Positions 5,255 to 14,539 of a DNA stretch of 14,807 nucleotides are shown here, in pieces. Location: positions 1 through 14,807 of the IMG/VR virus record IMGVR_UViG_2634166457_000018. One strand, written 5' to 3'. The translations under genes were made by a program, and so were the position numbers. Within the stretch, counting starts at the first letter, position 1; every line of letters starts with the position of its first letter. The notes under the pieces are model-generated. The model did no database searches. It had not been told where the DNA came from and saw only the letters and a list, made by a program, of their open reading frames with translations. The DNA comes from a virus. Lineage: Duplodnaviria > Heunggongvirae > Uroviricota > Caudoviricetes.

Positions 5255-5353
5255 TTATTTCCCGTATGCTTTTCTGAGAAACAGTATTGCAACTGACCAG
5301 TATCCTGCATTAGCCATTAATAATGCGGTTTTATAAGCGTTTCTATTTTTCAT
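5255..5353 (-). CDS. Small hydrophobic peptide (32 aa, MKNRNAYKTALLMANAGYWSVAILFLRKAYGK)
   Basis: ORF not in the supplied track; SD GGTGA upstream; stop lies 3 nt before the start of the 119-aa gene. Confidence 0.3.
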   Translation of the reverse strand: MKNRNAYKTALLMANAGYWSVAILFLRKAYGK

Positions 5354-5435
5354 GCATCACCATTATTTTCTGGTTGTGGAAATCCACGACCAGAGGCCGT
5401 CATGTTTTTATGTGTGATTTTTTACTGAGTGTTCT

Positions 5436-5627
5436 TTATTCGTTGCGTAGTGTTTCTATATACTCGTAAGCCATTTCACAGGTCTTATTCATGGAGCGAA
5501 TGAGGCAGCATAAATAATCGTCTACCTCTCCTGAGTCGGGCGAATTCTTAAATATAAATTCAAGCATTGATGTATTCTCTTTTATTTGTGCTGCCACTTC
5601 CTCAAGAATATTTAATGGAGTTTTCAT
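5436..5627 (-). CDS. Small acidic protein (63 aa), third gene of the cI-adjacent cassette
   Basis: ATGA overlap with the stop of the upstream 63-aa gene; AT-rich; acidic composition (many D/E). Confidence 0.55.
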   Translation of the reverse strand: MKTPLNILEEVAAQIKENTSMLEFIFKNSPDSGEVDDYLCCLIRSMNKTCEMAYEYIETLRNE

Positions 5628-5815
5628 GTTCTTTGCTCCTTAAATGCATCGCATGCGCTTCTGGCGTATTGTTGTGCCAGTAAAAAGATATCATCCGAAA
5701 GTTCATCACATTCTTCATCACCGGAAGCCGAAATGATTAACCCCGCTTCAAGCAGTACGGCAATGTGATGAAAAGCTGTCTCCGGTTCGTTGGTAAGGCC
5801 CTTGAACATTTTCAT
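5624..5815 (-). CDS. Small acidic protein (63 aa, start at internal ATG: MKMFKGLTNEPETAF...), second gene of the cassette
   Basis: The track ORF 5624..5848 overlaps the upstream gene by 32 nt. The internal ATG at 5813-5815 has SD AGGAGG 9 nt upstream and lies 1 nt after the upstream stop, so is the likelier start. Confidence 0.5.
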   Translation of the reverse strand: MKMFKGLTNEPETAFHHIAVLLEAGLIISASGDEECDELSDDIFLLAQQYARSACDAFKEQRT

Positions 5816-5816
5816 C

Positions 5817-6245
5817 TTATGCTTCCTCCTGATTTTGTTTATAAGCATCAGTCAATAACAACATTGGATCACAGCCAAGAACATTAGCCAGAGGGATAAG
5901 CATGCTGATGGTTGGTTCGTACTCTCCGCTTTCCCACTGGATGATAATTTCTTCATCGAGATCGAGCAGCCTGGCGAGTTCGGCGGTTGTTAAGCCGCAG
6001 GCTTCGCGTTGGGTGCGGATTTTATTTGGTTGTTTGTTGATTATGTGATTATGTAATGGATAAGTAGCAGACAGGGCGTATTCATGAACAAACTCCATGA
6101 CTTCAAACCCCAATTCTTTAGAGCGATCACCATCAATTAAATGGAAAGTACGAGCAGCACCTACCAGATTTGCAATATTTAATGCAAAGGATTCTTTTTC
6201 GAAGTGGTTTAAGTTCGATATCTCAGTGGTTGTCAGATCTTTCAT
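5817..6245 (-). CDS. Two-domain protein with C-terminal XRE-type helix-turn-helix (142 aa), first gene of the cI-adjacent cassette
   Basis: C-terminal segment IRTQREACGLTTAELARLLDLDEEIIIQWESGEYEPTISMLIPLANVLGCDP fits the Cro/C1 (XRE) HTH pattern; the N-terminal 75 aa match nothing I recognise. Confidence 0.7.
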   Translation of the reverse strand: MKDLTTTEISNLNHFEKESFALNIANLVGAARTFHLIDGDRSKELGFEVMEFVHEYALSATYPLHNHIINKQPNKIRTQREACGLTTAELARLLDLDEEIIIQWESGEYEPTISMLIPLANVLGCDPMLLLTDAYKQNQEEA

Positions 6246-6391
6246 TGAATCACTATCAATTTAAAATTAACAATAAATCAAGTTAAAATTGATGGTGTGA
6301 TGTTAGATCTTGATTGATGGAATTGTCAAGAAAAAATTGATTTCTGCGTCTCTTTTACTTGATTTGTAAATTTTTCTTTAATAATCAATAA
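6246..6391. promoter_or_regulatory. Leftward promoter/operator region downstream of cI (PL/OL-like): sigma70-like promoter on the minus strand plus TTGAT-type operator repeats
   Basis: Minus-strand -35 TTGACA (plus coords 6324-6329), 18-nt spacer, -10 TAACAT (6300-6305); imperfect palindrome ATCAAGTTAAAATTGAT at 6277-6293 over the predicted transcript start; 13-mer TTTTACTTGATTT at 6353-6365 identical to one in the cI/cro intergenic region. Confidence 0.45.
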
Positions 6392-7081
6392 TTAACCAAA
6401 TCTATTTATATTGAATGGAACAGATGAGATTACCTTCGATTGGATATAAAGCAGCTCAAGAGCATCTTTTTCAATGCTCCAGGATTGGTAATTTGGGTTA
6501 TCAGATAACACCATGATTTTACTTCCTATCTTTTGTAATCTTTTGACGTAGCATTCACCATCAAAGCAAAAAGCATAAATGCCATCACCATCAAAGTAAT
6601 TCACTGTTTTATCGAGAAAAAGAAGATCTCCTGGGGCTATTGTTGGAGCCATACTATCTCCTCTTGCGTTACCAATCTCTATGTTTTGAAATGCTCTATT
6701 GCCAACAAGGCGACGGGCATATTCAGGATCAAGCTCGATTGAGCGAACTACATCGATAAAGTCCCCACGGACATGTGTTCCATCGCCGCAACTAAACTCA
6801 ACATCGAGCACGTTAAAGACCACACTGTCAGTTCTTGCTTGATGTTTTTCCTTTGAAGAGAACTGCCGTGACGTGATTTCTCCTAAAAACCACGATTGCG
6901 GATAACCACTTATTTCGGATAACTGGGCAAGCCGGTTTCCCCTTGGAAATGTTTTTCCTGTTGTCCAGTACTGTACGGACTGTGCGCTGACACCTAACTT
7001 TCGGGCCAGCTCTGCTTGGCTCCAGCCTTTCTCCTGTAGCAGCTTTGTAATTCGATTTTCAGTGCTCTTTAAGTTTTTCAT
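6392..7081 (-). CDS. cI: CI-type phage repressor (N-terminal HTH, C-terminal S24 LexA-like peptidase domain; 229 aa)
   Basis: N-terminal HTH (LLQEKGWSQAELARKLGVSAQSVQYW); C-terminal GDSMAPTI with downstream VKRL, matching the Ser/Lys dyad pattern of LexA/CI autopeptidases; divergent from a Cro-like gene; SD AAGGA upstream. Confidence 0.9.
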   Translation of the reverse strand: MKNLKSTENRITKLLQEKGWSQAELARKLGVSAQSVQYWTTGKTFPRGNRLAQLSEISGYPQSWFLGEITSRQFSSKEKHQARTDSVVFNVLDVEFSCGDGTHVRGDFIDVVRSIELDPEYARRLVGNRAFQNIEIGNARGDSMAPTIAPGDLLFLDKTVNYFDGDGIYAFCFDGECYVKRLQKIGSKIMVLSDNPNYQSWSIEKDALELLYIQSKVISSVPFNINRFG

Positions 7082-7215
7082 TGTTAATCCTTGCTGGTTA
7101 CTTGGTTTCGATAAATTTTTACTTGATTTTAGTGTATTCGATCTTTTGTGGACTTGTATGTTAATTTAAACTTGATGTAATCTTGAATTTATAAAGTTTA
7201 GATTGGTGGGTTGCG
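7082..7215. promoter_or_regulatory. Divergent cI/cro control region (OR with PRM/PR-like promoters) carrying repeated ACTTGAT-type operator motifs
   Basis: AT-rich 134-bp spacer between divergent repressor genes; repeats ACTTGGT (7099), ACTTGAT (7121, 7171), TCTTGAA (7181); 13-mer TTTTACTTGATTT at 7117-7129. Exact -35/-10 hexamers not confidently placed. Confidence 0.6.
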
Positions 7216-7488
7216 ATGAAAGGAAATGATTACGACGCACTTCGTGAGCTAATTGCACAAAATGCCATAGCGCGAAATCTAGGCGTTACGCCGCAAGCTG
7301 TGAACCAATGGTTTTCAAAAAGAACAATTCCTGCTCGTTTCGTCTTGCGTGTATGTGAAGTTGTGGAATGGAAAGTTACTCCTCATGGGTTAAGACCAGA
7401 TCTTTATCCCCATCCTGAAGATGCAATCCCTGATTTGTTACGTAGAAGTCACACAGCCACAAATGCGGCAGTTATGAAAAACGAATGA
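7216..7488 (+). CDS. cro: Cro-like HTH regulator (YdaS-type; 90 aa)
   Basis: First rightward gene of the immunity region; HTH ARNLGVTPQAVNQW and a downstream LRPDLYP motif, which I recall as typical of YdaS-like Cro proteins; SD GGTGGG upstream. Confidence 0.7.
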   Translation: MKGNDYDALRELIAQNAIARNLGVTPQAVNQWFSKRTIPARFVLRVCEVVEWKVTPHGLRPDLYPHPEDAIPDLLRRSHTATNAAVMKNE

Positions 7489-7500
7489 TGAAGGGCTTGT

Positions 7501-7794
7501 ATGTCCCAGAATTACGTTCAGACAGAGATGCCATCTAGGCACTGCCAGGCAGACGAAGAGTGGATTCAGCAGCAGTTACAGGGGCTGCCTCCGTCACTGA
7601 GACGGAAGGTCGCCCTGAAATATGCGGAGGTATACGAAATCACTTTTGACGCTGAGCCTGTTTCATTCCGCAAGGAGAACAGAGCAAGGCACGAAGCAAA
7701 CACAAGGCTCCGCTTGTTTGTGAGAAATCAGGGCAGAGCTTTACAGGGGTATACAACTCAGCCGCCCCTGGCAGGAACGCAATCGCGCTCCTGA
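7501..7794 (+). CDS. Hypothetical early protein in the cII position (97 aa)
   Basis: ORF 12 nt after cro-like gene with SD AAGGG; function not assignable from sequence. Confidence 0.5.
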   Translation: MSQNYVQTEMPSRHCQADEEWIQQQLQGLPPSLRRKVALKYAEVYEITFDAEPVSFRKENRARHEANTRLRLFVRNQGRALQGYTTQPPLAGTQSRS

Positions 7795-8523: not shown

Positions 8524-10182
8524 ATGCAGCTGACAATCACGCCGAATTTTGCACAGGAGCGAGCGCTAAACATGTTGCGCCGTGACTGGAAGGCAAACGA
8601 CACCTTCATGGTTTACTCGCCAACAGGTAGCGGTAAAACGGGTCTGGCAGCCTTCATAGTTGCTGGTTTTGTCAGCCGTGGTATGCGTGTTCTGTTCTGT
8701 GTTCCGTACACCATCCTGATTGGTCAGACGGCTAATCGGTTCGTGCAGTATGGTTTACCTGGAGATGAAATCGGTTATATCTGGGCGGATCACCCGAACT
8801 ACGATCCGGACCGGAAAATTCAGATTGCCAGCGCTGACACGCTTATTCGTCGTGTTTTTCCTGAAAATATCGATCTGCTGATTATCGACGAAGCGCACCT
8901 GCGTAAAAAACGCATCCTGAAGGATATCGAACGTCTGCGCGGCAAAGGCGTAAAGGTGATTGGCCTGTCGGGTACTCCGTTTTCTCCGTTCCTGGGCAAA
9001 TACTATGACCGACTGATTAAGCCGACCACCATCGGCGAGTTAATCCAGCGTGGCGATCTGAGTAAATACGAATTTTACGCGCCAACTAAGCCGGATCTGA
9101 AAGGTGTTAAAACCACATCTTCGCTTGAGTACGGCCGCGATTACAACGAAACACAGCTGGCTGAAATCATGTGCGGCTCTACGCTGGTGGGCGACATCGT
9201 ACAGAACTGGCTGGAGAATGGTCGGGATCTACCTACCATCGCTTTCTGCGTCAACGTAGCTCACGCCAATTATCTGACAATCCAGTTTAACCTGGCGGGT
9301 GTTAACGCTGAGGTAATGACCGCAGACACTCCGGTAGATGAGCGCCAGACCATCATTCACCGCTTTGAAACTGGTGCAACGAAAATCATCGTTAGTGTGG
9401 GCGTTCTGGTGGCCGGCTTTGATAGTGACGTTCGTTGCATCATCTACGCCAGGCCAACAAAAAGCGAAATTCGCTGGTTGCAGGCACTCGGGCGTGGGCT
9501 GCGCACCGCACCGGGTAAAGAGTCCTGCCTTATCTTCGATCACAGCGGCACCGTGCACCGTCTGGGTTATCCGGATTCAATCGAGTACGACGATCTTCCC
9601 GGTAAGTCTGACGGCATGGAGGAAAGCGCGCGCCGCGCAGTTGAGGAACGGGCCGAAAAACTGCCACATGAATGCCCTCAATGCCACTACATGAAGCCAG
9701 CTGGCGTCTATGTTTGCCCTAAATGTGGACACAAGCCGCTGCGAGGTGAAGATGTTGATACTGACACTAGCCGCAAACTTAATAAGCTGGGTAAAAATCA
9801 GCATCAGTCGACGAAGGCAGAGAAACAGTCCTGGTGGAGTCAGATCAAATTTTATCAGCGCCAGCGTGCTTCGCTGGGGCGTCCAGTCAGTGATGGATGG
9901 TGTACTCACACTTTCAGGGAGAAATTCGGTGAATGGCCTGATGGGTTGAGCAGTTTCCCGATGGAAATAAGCCCAGAGGTAAGTAACTACATCAAACACA
10001 AGCTGATTCGGTTTGCCAAAGGCCGTCAGCGGACGCAGAGAACTATAGAAAAATTGCAGGCAACGATTCCTCTGTCTCAGGAACGAGGTGAGCGAAGCGA
10101 GATGCCAATAGGCACTGAGGCTTGGCGCATCATGCAAGCAAAGCAACAACTCCAGAAAAATATAAACAGTTTGAGTCAGTAA
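8524..10182 (+). CDS. Superfamily-2 (DEAD/DEAH-type) helicase with C-terminal Cys4 zinc ribbon (552 aa), phage replication helicase
   Basis: Walker A SPTGSGKTG, DEAH box LLIIDEAH, motif III GLSGTP, motif VI LQALGRGLR; C-terminal CPQC...CPKC. Confidence 0.85.
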   Translation: MQLTITPNFAQERALNMLRRDWKANDTFMVYSPTGSGKTGLAAFIVAGFVSRGMRVLFCVPYTILIGQTANRFVQYGLPGDEIGYIWADHPNYDPDRKIQIASADTLIRRVFPENIDLLIIDEAHLRKKRILKDIERLRGKGVKVIGLSGTPFSPFLGKYYDRLIKPTTIGELIQRGDLSKYEFYAPTKPDLKGVKTTSSLEYGRDYNETQLAEIMCGSTLVGDIVQNWLENGRDLPTIAFCVNVAHANYLTIQFNLAGVNAEVMTADTPVDERQTIIHRFETGATKIIVSVGVLVAGFDSDVRCIIYARPTKSEIRWLQALGRGLRTAPGKESCLIFDHSGTVHRLGYPDSIEYDDLPGKSDGMEESARRAVEERAEKLPHECPQCHYMKPAGVYVCPKCGHKPLRGEDVDTDTSRKLNKLGKNQHQSTKAEKQSWWSQIKFYQRQRASLGRPVSDGWCTHTFREKFGEWPDGLSSFPMEISPEVSNYIKHKLIRFAKGRQRTQRTIEKLQATIPLSQERGERSEMPIGTEAWRIMQAKQQLQKNINSLSQ

Positions 10183-10183
10183 G

Positions 10184-11152
10184 ATGAAAACAGCAGCTGC
10201 AGCGAAAGGCCGCTGGCCTGAAATATTAGAGCACTTCGGCTTGCCGCCGATAACAGGAAAAAATCACTTCAAGGGTGAATGCCCGGTATGCGGTGCACGT
10301 GGCAAGTTCCGAATTGATGACCGCGACGGTGCAGGAACGTGGATCTGTGTATGTGGTAGTGGCGATGGTATGAAACTTGTCACCCTGACACAGGCGAAGC
10401 CATTTAACGAGATTTGTACCGAAATAGACCGCCTGATCGGTAATGATTACCAACGGGTTAAAATCCCGGTAACCAGCAGCGCCACCAGCTTACGCAAACG
10501 GGTATTGAGCAAGTTTTCAAAACTGGAGGCACTGCGTGGTACATCCGGCGCAGCGTATCTTAATTCTCGTGGAATATTCAGTCTTCCTGCTGAGGCGATC
10601 CGGTTCAATGCCAGGCAGAGACACAACGGGAGTGTGTTCCAGTCTCTTTATTCACTTGCTACGGACGATAAAGGGGAGTTGTGCTATCTGCACCAGACTC
10701 TGCTTGATGGTGATAAAAAAGCAGATATCGGTAGCAGTGCAAAGCGCCTCAAATCCCTGCAGGAAGATAACTATTTGGATCACGCTCGTTCTGTAGCTAT
10801 CCGCATGTTTCCTGTTGCCAGCACTCTGGGTATCGCCGAAGGCATCGAAACAGCGCTGTCAGCGCACCAGATTTATAACGTGAACACCTGGGCAACCATT
10901 AACAGCGGCTTTATGAAAAAGTTCCGCGTACCAGCTGGTGTTCTGCACCTGATTATTTTTGCCGACCGTGACGAGAACAGCGCCACCGGGCTGGCTGCGG
11001 CTTGCGAATGTGCTCATGCCAATCTGATGGCAAAGAATGACCTGCAGCGCGTGAGCGTGTACTGGCCGGATCACGATGATTTCAACAATATGCTCATGAA
11101 CGGTGATCAGGTTCGAGAGCTGGTTTTCCATAAGAAAAAGGCGGTTGCGTAA
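10184..11152 (+). CDS. DNA primase-like protein: N-terminal zinc-ribbon plus Toprim domain (322 aa)
   Basis: N-terminal CPVCGARGKFRIDDRDGAGTWICVCG (primase-type zinc ribbon); Toprim-like acidic motifs IAEGIETALS and LIIFADRDEN; start 1 nt after helicase stop. Confidence 0.75.
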   Translation: MKTAAAAKGRWPEILEHFGLPPITGKNHFKGECPVCGARGKFRIDDRDGAGTWICVCGSGDGMKLVTLTQAKPFNEICTEIDRLIGNDYQRVKIPVTSSATSLRKRVLSKFSKLEALRGTSGAAYLNSRGIFSLPAEAIRFNARQRHNGSVFQSLYSLATDDKGELCYLHQTLLDGDKKADIGSSAKRLKSLQEDNYLDHARSVAIRMFPVASTLGIAEGIETALSAHQIYNVNTWATINSGFMKKFRVPAGVLHLIIFADRDENSATGLAAACECAHANLMAKNDLQRVSVYWPDHDDFNNMLMNGDQVRELVFHKKKAVA

Positions 11153-12009
11153 TGCGTACTGATAACAACGAACATAAAGCACTATTCACCATCCCGACGG
11201 CAGCGTACAGCTCCGCCATCGCAAACATCAAGCCCCTGCCAGAGCAACGGAGAATCACCGGGCATAAGCAGACTGATGCTTATCTTTGGGTGCTGGAGGT
11301 TATCCGTCTGAACGAACCCGCACATCTGGATGCTGCTGAGGCTGCGCTGGTGAAAATTAAAATTTCCCCAAAAGAGGCTCAGGAACGCTATTCGCGTTAT
11401 CTGCTGGCGAATGGTGGTGATCCTTTCCAGATTGCTTTCGGTACCATCGGCATGGATAACCCGGCACAGGCAATCAGGATCGCCCGGGAGAATATCAAAA
11501 AAGCAGCATCAGTCAGGGCTACGTTTGGTAGCTATGAAGCAGCACTCGAAGATGTGGAAGCCGAGCGAGTGATCAAGTCTTCCCAGAAATTTATCGACGA
11601 TCATCTCTGGGGCTGGACTGCAGCCGAGAAGAAAGCGGGCAGAATTGATGGCATCCGTATGAATGAAATTGATGATCAGCGTCGTGCATATGTTGATGGC
11701 TATCGTGATGTACTGCCAGAGCCTCATACATTGTCAGACGTAGTTCGTGAGTTTGTTTACTGGGACTGGCTCTACAGTGTTCGCCACACTGCGACTAAAG
11801 AACAGGGCGATGAGTATGGTTACTCTGAGCATCACGAATCGGTATATGACCGCGAGCGCTACCTTGAAAAATTGCTGATGACCATCAAACCGGTGACACG
11901 GGCTGAAGCCGTGGAGGTGTGTCGTTGGTTTTTGGCAAGCGGAAAGGGCGAATATATGAAAGACAATGGCGAGGCGGTTATTCTTAATCTGGTTGGGGAG
12001 TGTGAATAA
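11152..12009 (+). CDS. Hypothetical protein (285 aa), translationally coupled to the primase
   Basis: Start overlaps the primase stop (TAATG); no recognisable motif. Confidence 0.65.
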   Translation: MRTDNNEHKALFTIPTAAYSSAIANIKPLPEQRRITGHKQTDAYLWVLEVIRLNEPAHLDAAEAALVKIKISPKEAQERYSRYLLANGGDPFQIAFGTIGMDNPAQAIRIARENIKKAASVRATFGSYEAALEDVEAERVIKSSQKFIDDHLWGWTAAEKKAGRIDGIRMNEIDDQRRAYVDGYRDVLPEPHTLSDVVREFVYWDWLYSVRHTATKEQGDEYGYSEHHESVYDRERYLEKLLMTIKPVTRAEAVEVCRWFLASGKGEYMKDNGEAVILNLVGECE

Positions 12010-12824
12010 TGAAGCTTGAGGCATCGCTAAAATACTTCAGTCCTCAGGGAATGTATATCGGCGACGATGTGAAAGGAACCTCTCCGGAACGTCTTACAGG
12101 CACCGATGTTATGGCGGCTATTGGTACCACCAGCAGCCGAGCGCGATTTGGTCTGGCGGCTTTCTTTGGGAAGGCCGGTATCAGCAAGACTGATGAGCAG
12201 ATGGCAGTCCAGGCGCTTGCGCGTCACGCGATGGAAATTGCACCGAAGAATGTGCGTAAAGCAGCTGGTGGTGAATTTGGGTGGTGTATGCTGGTACTGG
12301 CGCAGTTTGCCTTTGCTGAGTACTCTCGCTCAGCTGCTACCAGCAGCGTCTGCACTATATGCAAAGGAACCGGTAGAACCACACGGACTCAAATTACACG
12401 AAAGGTTTCTTTCCCGTGTGGACCGCCTCCGTACTGGGCCAGCCGTTCTCGCGCTGTTCGGCCATCAGATTGGGAGCATTGGACGGAGATAATGGAGAGT
12501 GTGCCTGCAGTCTGTGATGTCTGCGAAGGCAGGGGAGCAATAAGCGCACGTTGCCGTTGTGGTGGAAAAGGGAAAATTCTAGATCGTATTGCGACAAAAG
12601 AGCAAGGTATGCCAGTATTTAAAACCTGCGAGCGTTGTAGTGGAAAGGGATTCGTATCTATCAAATCAGCTAATGTTCATCGAGCTATTCAAATATACAT
12701 TCCCGATCTGCACCAGTCTTCATGGTCGCGCAATTGGAAACCATTCTATGAAAAATTGGTTGATATCCTGCATCAAGGTGAGCGGCATGCGGCTGGAGCA
12801 TTTGAGAAGGCAACGAGTTACTGA
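12009..12824 (+). CDS. Zinc-finger protein with DnaJ-like CxxCxGxG repeats (271 aa); candidate late-gene antiterminator (Q-position protein)
   Basis: Start overlaps upstream stop (TAATG); three CxxCxGxG motifs (CTICKGTG, CDVCEGRG, CERCSGKG) plus CRCGGKG; immediately followed by a promoter and intrinsic terminator resembling PR'/tR'. The Q assignment is positional. Confidence 0.6.
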   Translation: MKLEASLKYFSPQGMYIGDDVKGTSPERLTGTDVMAAIGTTSSRARFGLAAFFGKAGISKTDEQMAVQALARHAMEIAPKNVRKAAGGEFGWCMLVLAQFAFAEYSRSAATSSVCTICKGTGRTTRTQITRKVSFPCGPPPYWASRSRAVRPSDWEHWTEIMESVPAVCDVCEGRGAISARCRCGGKGKILDRIATKEQGMPVFKTCERCSGKGFVSIKSANVHRAIQIYIPDLHQSSWSRNWKPFYEKLVDILHQGERHAAGAFEKATSY

Positions 12825-12850
12825 TCTGAATAGATCTGGGGGAGAGATTT

Positions 12851-12893
12851 TTGAGCAACTGACTTGACTTTGCATAAAATTGTCTTGTACTAT
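12851..12893 (+). promoter_or_regulatory. Candidate late promoter (PR'-like) with a downstream -10-like element
   Basis: -35 TTGAGC (12851-12856), 18-nt spacer, -10 TAAAAT (12875-12880); alternative overlapping parse TTGACT (12864-12869) N18 TACTAT (12888-12893). The TACTAT could act as a sigma-dependent pause element as in lambda qut. Confidence 0.4.
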
Positions 12894-12934
12894 TTTGAGC
12901 ATGGGTTTTAGTGCCAAAATAAAAATTACCACAG

Positions 12935-12957
12935 AACCCGCCTTACAGCGGGTTTTT
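12935..12957 (+). terminator. Rho-independent terminator (tR'-like), also at the 3' end of the convergent 314-aa gene
   Basis: 7-bp stem AACCCGC/GCGGGTT with 6-nt loop CTTACA followed by a T5 run; lies 40-70 nt downstream of the candidate late promoter. Confidence 0.7.
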
Positions 12958-12959
12958 AA

Positions 12960-13904
12960 TTATGGTAAATTTTCCATAAATTTCTTAAATAGTAATTTGT
13001 CTTTGTTGCTTACAGATTTCTGGATGTTAAGTAATGCGCGTAAAGGTTTAAGATTTTCTCTTGTTGCAAAAAACCTCGATTTTTCTAAGCGTTCCTGAAC
13101 AAAAATAAAGCGCTCTCTTAATCTTGAAACCTTTATTCCAAATGACAACACCTCTCTTTCAGTTAATTCATCTGGGTTGCATTTGTTTAATTTTTCCAGA
13201 ACCATTTTTATATCTCTTTCATAAAGAAGAGCAATGTCATAATCATTCAGCAAGCATTCAGGGTATTGTATTACCCCAATAAGTTCGTTTACGGTTTTGT
13301 TCTTATTGTTAACTTTCGGAGCTAAGTCGCTTGTTTGCTTTTGGGATATAATTTCGTCCAGTTCTAGCTCTTCTGTATTTTTTAATCTTGAGCGGAAAAC
13401 ACGCCCATCACCAGAAGCAGCCATCTTTTTCAATGTTTGATAAGCTGCACGCCCGATGATTTTAGGGTCTTTCATGTCAAGTATTCTATGAGCAACCTCA
13501 GTTAGTGATGGACGCCCAGATTCGATTTTGGCTTTGAGTTTGTAATAGCTAAAAATATCATCTTTTGCCTCTTTAAGTGCGGTAAGTAAGCGATGGAAAT
13601 CTGCTTTTCGGCAAAGTTCTATTGCTAAATTATCAAAGGCTATACCAAAAACATTAGTTCCACATACATGGCCGATATTCGTTTCAAATCCTTCTTTCGT
13701 AACTACCAGAAATCCCTTTTTATGCCCTTTGCGGCAATTTGATTTTCCACATGGAATTTCCTCTGGTAGGTCATCGTAGTAACCAAAAACGTCAGAGAGT
13801 TGCTGATCATTTAACTCTAATTTGGGATAGTAAGACTCTCTCGCCTGAATTTCTGCCCAGTCATTCACGCGAATAAAACTTTCGCCATTCTTGAGAAAAA
13901 TCAT
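12960..13904 (-). CDS. Hypothetical protein (314 aa) in an AT-rich island, antisense to late transcription (moron)
   Basis: Long minus-strand ORF with SD AAGGA 6 nt upstream of ATG; visibly AT-rich against GC-balanced neighbours; Lys/Glu-rich with N-terminal Cys/His cluster (CGKSNCRKGH...GHVCG). No family recognised. Confidence 0.75.
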   Translation of the reverse strand: MIFLKNGESFIRVNDWAEIQARESYYPKLELNDQQLSDVFGYYDDLPEEIPCGKSNCRKGHKKGFLVVTKEGFETNIGHVCGTNVFGIAFDNLAIELCRKADFHRLLTALKEAKDDIFSYYKLKAKIESGRPSLTEVAHRILDMKDPKIIGRAAYQTLKKMAASGDGRVFRSRLKNTEELELDEIISQKQTSDLAPKVNNKNKTVNELIGVIQYPECLLNDYDIALLYERDIKMVLEKLNKCNPDELTEREVLSFGIKVSRLRERFIFVQERLEKSRFFATRENLKPLRALLNIQKSVSNKDKLLFKKFMENLP

Positions 13905-14030
13905 ACTCGTCCTTACTGTGGTTAGATTTAAAGCATATCCATTTGATATTTAATCACTATTCTTTTTGTATTTCACCTAAAACCATTTTGTTTTCATGTT
14001 TAATGTGACTGATGTATCATCACTCCCCCA

Positions 14031-14102
14031 GCCATTTTAGCTAAATGATGAGAGCGAGTTATAATCGCCAGGTCGCTGGTTCAAGTCCAGCAAGGGCCAC
14101 CA
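14031..14102 (+). tRNA. tRNA-Ile-like element with degenerate 5' half (probable pseudo-tRNA or 3' tRNA fragment)
   Basis: The 3' part (about 14059-14102: ATAATCGCC AGGTCGCTGGTTCAAGTCCAGCAAGGGCCACCA) closely matches my recollection of the enterobacterial tRNA-Ile2 3' half, including T-arm and CCA. The upstream sequence cannot form a paired acceptor stem and the D-arm region is shortened; the inferred anticodon loop reads UAU. Confidence 0.5.
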
Positions 14103-14103
14103 A

Positions 14104-14180
14104 CCGTCACTAGCTCATCGGGATAGAGCATCAACCTTCTAAGTTGATGGTGCGGGGTTCGAGTCCTCGGTGACGGACCA
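14104..14180 (+). tRNA. tRNA-Arg (anticodon UCU)
   Basis: Manual cloverleaf: acceptor CCGTCAC/GTGACGG, D-stem GCTC/GAGC, anticodon stem TCAAC/GTTGA with loop CTTCTAA, T-arm CGGGG-TTCGAGT-CCTCG, discriminator A, encoded CCA; 77 nt. Begins with C1-G72, which is unusual. Confidence 0.75.
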
Positions 14181-14181
14181 T

Positions 14182-14256
<75 letters not shown>

Positions 14257-14539
14257 TGTGTTTTTTTTGTCTGCACAACAGGTAAGAGCATTCTCCCTTA
14301 TGGGGCCTGGCTTAAATGCATTGAGTGCTCTTTCCGTTGTGCTGAATTAAGCGAATGCCGGAAGCAGAACCGGATTACCAAATGCGCACGGGCGTCGTCG
14401 CCGCCCAGCAACAGCACAACCCCGACAGAGCCGTAGCCACTGGCTGTCATGAATTAATCAGTGACAGTTATGCTGCGGCCTTCTTTTTTCCCTTCCCGAT
14501 ATAAGAATTACGCCATCCGTTCCGTGCGGAGGTGAGGCT

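Follow-up and report, generated by a model that had tools for sequence, protein, structure and literature searches.

Why a lambdoid prophage should carry a single gene on the strand opposite to late transcription, directly downstream of its late antiterminator gene, is the question raised by the locus studied here. The window is a stretch of 14,807 nt from a tailed phage (Caudoviricetes; IMG/VR record IMGVR_UViG_2634166457_000018). A sequence-only reading of it had placed a 314-aa antisense ORF between Q and its late terminator on one side and a tRNA cluster on the other, and the ORF was found there, at 12960-13904 on the minus strand, with the Q and hairpin flank at 12009-12957 and the tRNA flank at 14031-14256. 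The ORF, here called X, is best explained as an autonomous cargo ('moron') cassette in a variable slot that follows Q, pR' and tR' of a lambdoid prophage. The features of the locus are as follows.

12009..12824 (+), late antiterminator Q gene (271 aa); PF03589 Antiterm, E 4.8e-52; phrog_127
12864..12893 (+), putative pR'-like late promoter from a consensus scan; -35 TTGACT, 18-nt spacer, -10 TACTAT
12934..12957 (both strands), tR'-like hairpin GAACCCGC / GCGGGTT plus T-run, from folding energies
12960..13904 (-), ORF X (314 aa); ATG start; encoded protein soluble
13910..13914 (-), Shine-Dalgarno sequence AAGGA, 5 nt before the X ATG, read from the sequence
13948..13976 (-), candidate X promoter read from the sequence; -35 GTGAAA, 17-nt spacer, extended -10 TG-a-TTAAAT
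14031..14099 (+), degenerate tRNA, ileZ-like, anticodon loop TAT, opening the phage tRNA cluster; Rfam tRNA, 31.3 bits (gathering score 29)
14104-14180 (+), tRNA-Arg(TCT), sense with late transcription; ARAGORN; Rfam, 56 bits
14182-14256 (+), tRNA-Gly(TCC), sense with late transcription; ARAGORN; Rfam, 62.8 bits

X is an AT-rich gene under purifying selection

The block around X had been described as AT-rich, and measurement of GC content and GC3 bore this out. Block 12830-14030 has a GC content of 36.0%, below the ~50% of the flanking genes and the 46.8% of the window as a whole, and the lowest-GC 945-bp stretch of the whole window falls inside this block. The X ORF has a GC content of 36.3% and a GC3 of 31%, compared with a GC3 of 45-55% in Q, primase and helicase. 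X was lower in GC than its surroundings in every lineage checked (11 others besides the window). Comparison with orthologues gave dN/dS values of 0.06-0.08, which indicate strong purifying selection, and X is therefore not a chance reading frame. X is a real gene under selection, foreign and AT-rich in composition, and it is polymorphic, being present in some phages with related Q genes and absent from others. When X and the adjacent Q were compared in the same pairs of phages, dS was 0.08-0.18 in X vs. 0.49-0.50 in Q. From this jump in dS and the polymorphism of the slot, we infer that X arrived by insertion; no clean empty site was found.

The slot after Q holds variable cargo

The interval between Q and the lysis genes had been proposed as a cargo hotspot. 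A protein-level survey agreed, as a member of the X family fills this slot in 24 of the 80 closest Q relatives and the others carry different genes, including IS transposases, PipA, DUF3800/PDC-M04A, DUF6575, DUF6367, and unknown or sense ORFs. Cargo further downstream also varies among related phages. An antisense ORF of Fels-1 that occupies the same slot is unrelated to X. At the nucleotide level, X had looked like a conserved core partner of this Q, with all 22 E. coli genomes that have a full-length nucleotide match to Q also carrying X; this apparently obligate pairing is an effect of the megablast threshold, because the survey of 80 relatives shows that the slot is variable. X did not prove to be a core gene of ordinary composition, and no homology to structural or lysis proteins was found.

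X is antisense in the window and at every Q-linked locus, where it lies between pR'/tR' and the tRNA and lysis genes. This placement has recurred independently. A subfamily with 25% identity to X is found antisense after a phi467-type Q, and in Ewingella a 59% identical orthologue runs antisense between holins and a Q of an unrelated family (PF06323). Many copies of the sister subfamily, however, are split or truncated, which counts against the defence reading given below. Head-on placement after tR' is thus seen with two unrelated Q families and in two 25%-identical subfamilies. In Hollowayvirus and in temperate phages of Klebsiella, homologues of X are found beside cI in a rexAB-like slot. 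The family as a whole comprises ~550 representatives at 50% clustering in prophages, plasmids and islands of Proteobacteria.

X shares its hotspot between Q/tR' and the lysis genes with the sense cargo of other phages (Stx, Bor and PipA/GtgA-type effectors), which raises the possibility that it has no part in phage conflict and instead serves lysogenic conversion or virulence, or acts as a toxin-like addiction gene. PipA, a virulence effector, is found at exactly this position in Salmonella-type phages, behind a Q with 75% identity, and occupancy of the Q slot therefore does not by itself imply defence. Moreover, many E. coli carriers of X are STEC, stx2e-like genes follow the Q-X-tRNA module in some E. 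coli as part of the downstream cargo, and toxin-antitoxin genes neighbor X in phi644-2 and on some plasmids. On the other hand, the protein lacks a signal peptide, any transmembrane segment and any domain associated with secretion, no antitoxin-like partner is conserved across X loci, and members of the family are frequent in environmental genomes of Xanthomonadales, Burkholderiales, Gallionella and Nitrosomonadales. X is unlikely to serve virulence, given this spread through environmental Proteobacteria, and we regard cargo of this type as a very improbable account of X.

Transcriptional layout of the cassette

The Q protein of the window is 39% identical to phi80 gp17/Q, and the pR'-like layout 3' of Q is kept across all related loci. 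The sequence-only reading had X converging on the tR'-like terminator, and the stop codon of X (12960-12962) indeed abuts the hairpin at 12934-12957, which folds as a terminator on both strands. On the plus strand its folding energy is -16.6 kcal/mol (z -4.75), and on the minus strand an extended stem followed by UUUUUAUUUU gives -20.7 kcal/mol (z -3.3). A simple terminator scan of the window did not call this hairpin; an equivalent GC hairpin was found in every Q/X locus. Based on these folding energies, the tR'-like hairpin is predicted to double as a minus-strand terminator for the X transcript.

At the opposite end of the gene, the candidate promoter is weak, scoring under the threshold of the consensus scan, and yet the motifs TGnTTAAAT and (G/A)TGAAA are retained 5' of orthologues whose proteins share only 59-62% identity with X, as is the AAGG of the Shine-Dalgarno sequence. 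These conserved promoter-like and Shine-Dalgarno elements, together with a bidirectional hairpin shared with tR', are in silico evidence consistent with the autonomous cargo unit that had been suggested.

In a lysogen, where Q is absent, transcripts from pR' would stop at the hairpin at 12934-12957, and the weak sigma-70 promoter of X itself (extended -10 at 13948-13956) would drive a transcript that is predicted to start near 13941 and to terminate at the same hairpin from the opposite side. Upon induction, RNA polymerase modified by Q would read through the hairpin and run head-on across the 945 nt of X toward the tRNA and lysis genes, lowering X expression through collision and antisense RNA. 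Judging from this anatomy and from the precedent of phi80 Tai, X is probably expressed in the lysogen and shut off in the late phase. In phi80, taiEcA is antisense inside the Q-controlled late operon and expression of Q lowers the amount of Tai protein; TaiEcA/AtiEcA form a 'noncontiguous operon' for tail assembly inhibition, a prophage defence gene expressed in the lysogen (He et al., Nat Commun 2024, PMC11364771). X likewise is antisense and interrupts a Q-controlled late unit. In contrast, Tai is located near cos, past the lysis genes, and X comes immediately after tR' and before the tRNA and lysis genes. As a candidate homologue of Tai, X was rejected after hhalign comparison of a 132-sequence profile with phi80 Orf63 returned a probability of 0.1%. 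Stx genes, unlike X, are in sense orientation and depend on Q read-through. Since X is antisense and has a candidate promoter of its own, late transcription is expected to work against its expression, not to promote it.

X also resembles lambda rexAB, P22 sieB and BTP1 BstA, which are single or small AT-rich cargo units that are independently transcribed and expressed in lysogens, but it shares no homology with them. The likeness to rexAB extends to position in Hollowayvirus and Klebsiella phages, where X homologues are found between the early-left operon and cI, equivalent to the rexAB slot, but oriented opposite to cI. RexB and SieB have membrane segments, and X has none. The BstA family is defined by an N-terminal KilA-N DNA-binding domain (PMC8585504); membership of X in it was rejected, as neither KilA-N nor any other Pfam domain was found in 132 members of the X family.

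A zinc-binding domain joined to a variable helical domain

X encodes a 36-kDa protein with a pI of 8.8. According to an AF2 model and alignments, it consists of an N-terminal CCHC zinc-binding beta domain (aa 1-87) and a basic, all-helical C-terminal domain (aa 88-314; pI 9.35). The N-terminal Cys/His cluster remarked on in the sequence-only reading corresponds to C52, C57, H61 and C81; across 132 homologues with 18-97% identity the three cysteines are invariant and H61 is 99% conserved. Zinc binding by this cluster is predicted from the conserved residues and the model. Nearly all invariant residues of the family lie in the zinc domain, and relative to distant homologues the N-domain is 37% identical vs. 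17% for the C-domain. No catalytic-looking invariant residues were found across the homologue alignment.

The protein had been said to match no recognizable family, and searches gave the same picture. Its sole family match was phrog_7003 ('unknown function'; E 2.3e-116, residues 1-313 vs. positions 1-308 of the 309-position profile). Pfam, NCBIfam and PADLOC scans returned no meaningful match for X or any of its 132 relatives; against PADLOC-DB v2, X had no match at E<=1 and the relatives only scattered single matches at E>1e-3. Sequence-profile searches of the PDB gave only coiled-coil and designed-protein noise, and a word-index protein search with the deep X profile added almost no further relatives. 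An AF2 model from a 14-sequence alignment was discarded, as the alignment was too shallow (pLDDT 57). The model from the 132-sequence alignment has a pLDDT of 95.7 and matches no known fold and no PDB entry.

By eye, the modeled zinc knuckle (C52-x4-C57), the following beta hairpin (64-69, 74-77) and the helix bearing C81 look like a treble-clef/His-Me arrangement, and N76 is nearly invariant in the family. The notion that X is an HNH/His-Me nuclease was nevertheless rejected, as no HNH Pfam match was found in the 132 members, no structural match was obtained, and H79 varies (H/N/K/S/G/Q). The fourth zinc ligand is more plausibly H61 than H79.

A CCHC zinc site joined to a basic C-terminal domain would also suit a regulator that binds nucleic acid and tunes prophage or host transcription, such as late or Stx expression or repressor maintenance. 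In four phage lineages X is next to a regulatory hub, either Q/pR' or cI, and in 6 of 22 E. coli genomes its cassette is directly flanked by Q on one side and stx2e-like genes on the other. Neither the model nor any of the 132 members shows a helix-turn-helix or other known DNA-binding fold, however, and the family also occurs away from any Q or cI, on islands and plasmids. In addition, X is not needed for the function of Q, because most Q relatives hold unrelated cargo in the slot. We consider a regulatory role improbable, if less so than a role in virulence.

Genomic neighbors and a defence prediction

When 127 neighbors of 34 X loci were examined, the neighborhoods were found to be heterogeneous, and the results are given as raw counts. 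AbiJ_NTD5 and Abi_C were found beside X homologues in 3 of the 34 loci, and other neighbors included GajA/GajB (Gabija), IetA, a DRT reverse transcriptase, AriA-like, mad3, HipA, integrases and Tn3. Chromosomal copies of X are present in tight operons with AbiJ-like and DUF2026 genes. No homology of X to known defence proteins was detected by PADLOC or by profile comparison.

The cluster that contains X (WP_000576620.1, with member WP_096111884.1) is listed as 'Predicted novel defense gene' in Table S10 of the DefensePredictor study, with a mean log-odds of 4.67, slightly over the cut-off of 4 (DeWeirdt et al., Science 2026, PMC13092281). It is one of 1,041 uncharacterized predicted clusters in that table, and only 42 of 94 high-scoring units were validated in the study (PMC13092281). 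The X accessions are absent from its tables of tested and validated systems, and the cluster is given there as a prediction, without a family description, structure, context analysis or mechanism (PMC13092281). A full-text search of the literature for the X accessions found no mention of them outside this supplementary table. The DefensePredictor score is not independent of the neighborhood argument, because the model also uses genomic context. Taken together, the neighborhoods and the machine-learning prediction favor a role for X in defence.

Our working hypothesis is that X is a lysogen-expressed, non-enzymatic, single-protein exclusion or defence factor, and we put it forward tentatively. 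The protein would act stoichiometrically, binding a component of a mobile element, such as a superinfecting phage, to block that element, and its shut-off in the late phase would spare the lytic growth of the carrier phage.

The main rival to this hypothesis is that X is an anti-defence or establishment factor, expressed constitutively from its own promoter upon entry of a phage, plasmid or island, that binds and neutralizes a component of the host's immune or SOS response. It is the main rival because some plasmid copies of X are in settings that resemble leading regions. Homologues of X were found on 23 of 72,556 plasmids. Genes for Hok, antirestriction, ArdC-like and PsiA proteins and for relaxases are typical of plasmid leading regions, which are rich in anti-defence genes. 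On a Vibrio vulnificus plasmid, X adjoins hok/gef, antirestriction and zincin (ArdC-like) genes; on a Burkholderia plasmid it lies among small same-strand ORFs beside the TraI relaxase; and PsiA and ParE are encoded on a contig with the X homologue P0003 (locus L158). X also has a DUF4942 neighbor in Pseudomonas, and a protein with no catalytic residues and a variable, binding-type domain would suit an inhibitor as well as a sensor. However, only about three of seven plasmid contexts look leading-region-like from their gene content, and the four others are not evidently so. Phage anti-defence genes are usually located in early operons, whereas phage copies of X occupy lysogeny-type slots, either next to cI or on the antisense strand of the late leader. 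The tight chromosomal operons with AbiJ-like and DUF2026 genes and the defensive DefensePredictor score also run against an anti-defence role, which we judge to be unlikely, if the least so of the alternatives to defence.

If X does act in defence or counter-defence, it would represent a family for which no relatives can be detected among known systems and whose fold seems to be new, and as one gene of about 300 aa it would be simple enough for quick dissection. A bolder and more doubtful proposal than the defence hypothesis itself is that X is the founding member of a new and widespread family of immunity factors that act as single proteins and have a fold not seen before, and that their recurrent head-on placement has been selected as a lytic off-switch, possibly modulating toxin output in Stx2e-type prophages. 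The fold in this proposal would combine a conserved CCHC zinc module with a rapidly diversifying helical recognition domain. Since some STEC have X between Q and stx2e-like genes, head-on transcription could affect toxin expression. In porcine STEC, a 'hypothetical protein' gene precedes stx2e in 9 of 52 cases (PMC12571312), and X is a candidate for it. If true, the repeated antisense placement after tR' would broaden the 'noncontiguous operon' principle of phi80 Tai into a general design for self-sparing prophage immunity. E. coli alone has roughly a thousand 'predicted novel defence' clusters of this kind, and X is one good candidate among many.

The tRNA flank

In the direction of late transcription, the cassette is bounded on its downstream side by the tRNA cluster. 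Small ORFs 3' of the tRNAs (e.g., 14224-14436) gave no match in a Pfam search. The degenerate tRNA at 14031-14099 was not called in an ARAGORN run. Its counterpart in phage vB_EcoS-611R1 is labeled tRNA-Pseudo-TAT, and two other loci (L019 and L024) have an intact homologue in its place.

Results

The window covers the regions of a lambdoid prophage for immunity, replication and late control, with a Cro-like gene and the following features:

6392-7081, minus strand: CI-like repressor gene
8524-10182: DEAD-box helicase gene
10184-11152: primase gene
11152-12009, plus strand: gene of unknown function (285 aa, phrog_6204) between primase and Q; no Pfam match
12009-12824, plus strand: Q antiterminator gene (PF03589, E 5e-52)
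12864-12893: pR'-like promoter, after Q
12934-12957: GC hairpin with T-run (tR'-like), ~40 nt past the pR'-like promoter
12960-13904, minus strand: X, the 314-aa ORF
14031-14099, plus strand: decayed tRNA with TAT anticodon loop (Rfam, 31.3 bits), beyond the 5' end of X
following the decayed tRNA: tRNA-Arg(TCT) and tRNA-Gly(TCC)

A sequence-only reading had placed an antisense 314-aa ORF in an AT-rich block at 12830-14030, between a Q-like gene with its late terminator and a tRNA cluster, and each of these elements was recovered. The block has a GC content of 36.0%, and the 945-bp stretch with the lowest GC in the 14.8-kb window falls within it; GC3 is 31% in X vs. 45-55% in the adjacent genes. 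The hairpin ends 3 bases short of the X stop codon and folds well on both strands, the minus strand giving a longer stem followed by UUUUUAUUUU (z -3.3); it can thus act both as tR' and as the terminator of antisense X.

Comparison of X with its E. coli prophage orthologues gave 15-52 synonymous changes against 5-20 non-synonymous ones (dN/dS 0.06-0.08); X is a real gene under selection. In the same phage pairs (window vs. the related loci L004 and L005), dS was 0.08-0.18 for X and ~0.5 for the adjacent Q, indicating a recombination boundary between the two genes and more recent exchange of the X cassette. The junction was placed in or near the pR'/tR' interval (window 12009-13904 in these comparisons). 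A TG-n-TTAAAT element lies ~45 nt upstream of the X ATG, with (G/A)TGAAA 17 nt farther up and an AAGG ribosome-binding site ahead of the gene, and all three are kept in orthologues of just 59-62% protein identity. An independent promoter of X, predicted in silico, has its best support in these conserved elements.

A word-index search for relatives of X returned just 13 clusters (59-97% identity), and an exhaustive HMM search at E<=1e-3 recovered 550 representatives. Among the representatives listed, most measure ~300 aa and none has a length that would suggest fusion to another domain. In an alignment of 132 sequences (mean column identity 22%), Y43, C52, C57, G64, G78, C81 and G82 are invariant and G53, H61, G72, N76, F86, F90, E179 and N284 nearly so, in keeping with the N-terminal Cys/His cluster noted previously. 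Identity to distant members is 37% over residues 1-87 and 17% over the remainder; the N-domain is acidic and the C-domain basic, and the protein is predicted to be soluble, with no hydrophobic segment. An AlphaFold2 model built with a deep alignment (pLDDT 95.7, pTM 0.85) has a small N-terminal beta domain in a zinc knuckle, hairpin, helix arrangement, in which C52, C57, H61 and C81 presumably bind zinc, and then a long helix and an all-helical body, which includes a single beta hairpin and a variable linker. As the initial reading had supposed, X falls in no recognized family: Pfam, NCBIfam and PADLOC models matched none of the 132 members, PDB sequences did not match X, the model had no significant neighbor among PDB and BFVD structures, and the only library match was phrog_7003 ('unknown function'). 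Since no catalytic-type residues are conserved outside the zinc site, a binding role appears more likely than an enzymatic one. That X might be a regulator seems improbable to us.

At the nucleotide level, this Q allele was present in 22 E. coli genomes out of 5,426 complete ones, and all 22 also carry X. The obligate Q-X linkage first suggested by this observation was overturned by a protein-level survey in IMG/VR of the 80 Q proteins most closely related to this one (72-99% identity), 24 of which are followed after ~135-140 nt by an antisense member of the X family. The others hold IS transposases, a PipA-type effector, a DUF3800 protein matching candidate defense model PDC-M04A, DUF6575 or DUF6367 proteins, sense ORFs, or unrelated antisense ORFs of 130-165 aa such as Fels-1 STM0904. 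This variety of occupants shows the interval downstream of Q to be a cargo hotspot, as had been proposed. The placement itself recurs independently. A second X subfamily, just 25% identical, is antisense after a phi467-type Q in Stx2f and mouse-gut E. coli prophages, and in Ewingella americana (CP048243.1; locus L157, 7001-8759) a 59% orthologue is antisense between Q and holin genes. The Ewingella Q belongs to PF06323 and that of the window to PF03589, so the same geometry occurs with a non-homologous antiterminator. The order Q, pR', short leader, hairpin and ORF stop codon is kept at all Q-linked loci of the family, including these two.

Cargo beyond the tRNAs is also variable (stx2e-like genes, DUF6645, TerB with an esterase, or lysis genes directly). 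Some E. coli genomes have stx2e-like genes immediately after the Q-X-tRNA module (loci L005 6124-8768 and L155 3124-7109; E. coli STEC276, STEC306-308), and there Q-dependent transcription must therefore cross antisense X to reach stx. A 'hypothetical protein' reported upstream of stx2e in 9 of 52 porcine STEC may be X; the same study describes a context of 9 strains to which most low-toxin strains belong (PMC12571312).

Among isolated phages, the X family was found in just 7 of 50,697 records, and a cI/repressor gene was present in every carrier whose context was examined. The homologue of Pseudomonas Hollowayvirus phages and of one Klebsiella phage occupies the position that rexAB has in lambda, with the early-left operon on one side and cI on the other; that of Burkholderia phi644-2 is at the genome end, beside a toxin-antitoxin pair. 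Across 34 genomes (Xanthomonadales, Burkholderiales, Pseudomonas, Gallionella, and others) neighbors varied between loci, and included a DUF2026 papain-like peptidase gene 4 nt upstream (6 loci), an AbiJ-like HEPN gene just downstream (3 loci), integrases, Tn3 transposases, plasmid RepA, ImmA/IrrE peptidase and HipA, with PADLOC matches including GajA/GajB, IetA, PDC-S06, DRT reverse transcriptase, AriA-like and mad3. X is GC-poorer than its surroundings in every lineage checked and is thus mobile-element cargo, which travels alone. The environmental spread of the family, together with the absence of secretion features, makes a role as virulence effector unlikely.

In Xanthomonadales (Xanthomonas, Lysobacter, Luteimonas, Stenotrophomonas, and Pseudoxanthomonas), the DUF2026 gene and X homologue, with their 4-nt gap, are closely followed in loci L035-L040 (~5310-7745) by an AbiJ_NTD5+Abi_C gene or an unknown 269-aa gene, possibly as a three-gene operon.

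Of 72,556 plasmids, 23 carry a homologue, and some of the copies have surroundings that recall conjugative leading regions. The homologue adjoins hok/gef, antirestriction and ArdC-like zincin genes on a Vibrio vulnificus plasmid (L160) and a TraI relaxase gene on a Burkholderia plasmid (L161), and a further contig (L158) also carries PsiA. An anti-defense or establishment factor, a reading based on these plasmid contexts, is rather unlikely in our view.

Discussion

X is an AT-rich, mobile cassette of one gene under selection, and it belongs to an uncharacterized, putatively zinc-binding family. Its slot is polymorphic, and it lies antisense to late transcription with a bidirectional hairpin common to X and tR'. 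It is somewhat probable that X would be transcribed from its own promoter while Q is absent, and that after induction it would be opposed by head-on antiterminated late transcription. This regulatory geometry has a published precedent in the phi80 defense gene taiEcA, which is antisense within the Q-controlled late operon, expressed in the lysogen and reduced upon Q expression (PMC11364771). X was also considered as a Tai homologue and rejected, as no homology was found.

Recently, DefensePredictor (Science 2026) listed WP_096111884.1, in cluster WP_000576620.1 (the exact X protein), as a 'Predicted novel defense gene' (Table S10). The cluster's mean log-odds was 4.67 (range 3.6-5.6; the authors' strict cut-off is 4), it had no HHblits or Foldseek match to known defense proteins, and it is not among the systems tabulated as tested or validated. 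We tentatively suggest that X may be a stoichiometric exclusion or defense protein; unrelated conversion or addiction cargo is very unlikely. The element is of a well-known kind, a moron in the Q-lysis hotspot, probably with a role in conflict between mobile elements. What is new is the protein family, unnamed and without detectable relatives, whose modeled fold is apparently also new, and the recurrence of the exact antisense-after-tR' placement with unrelated Q families. X, already flagged computationally, is a solid, tractable candidate, one of many such.

Split or truncated copies (132+173, 245, 248, and 188+136 aa) suggest frequent loss and belong for the most part to the 25%-identical sister subfamily; they occur at loci L002 4001-4875 (phi467), L006 4946-5683 (with an IS200/IS605 transposase ~1.2 kb away), L074, L146 and L148-L150. 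Elsewhere in the window, the 285-aa gene between primase and Q is found at that position in this phage group (Fels-1, phi467, and many E. coli prophages) and is called HTH-containing in some records. The decayed tRNA has a damaged D-arm and was missed by ARAGORN; its position is taken by an intact ileZ-like tRNA in the related phages L019 and L024. Another AT-rich stretch, of 30-33% GC, at 5817-6600 beside the cI-like gene, includes a 142-aa HTH_3 ORF (5817-6245, minus strand) that may be another accessory or regulatory gene of the immunity region.
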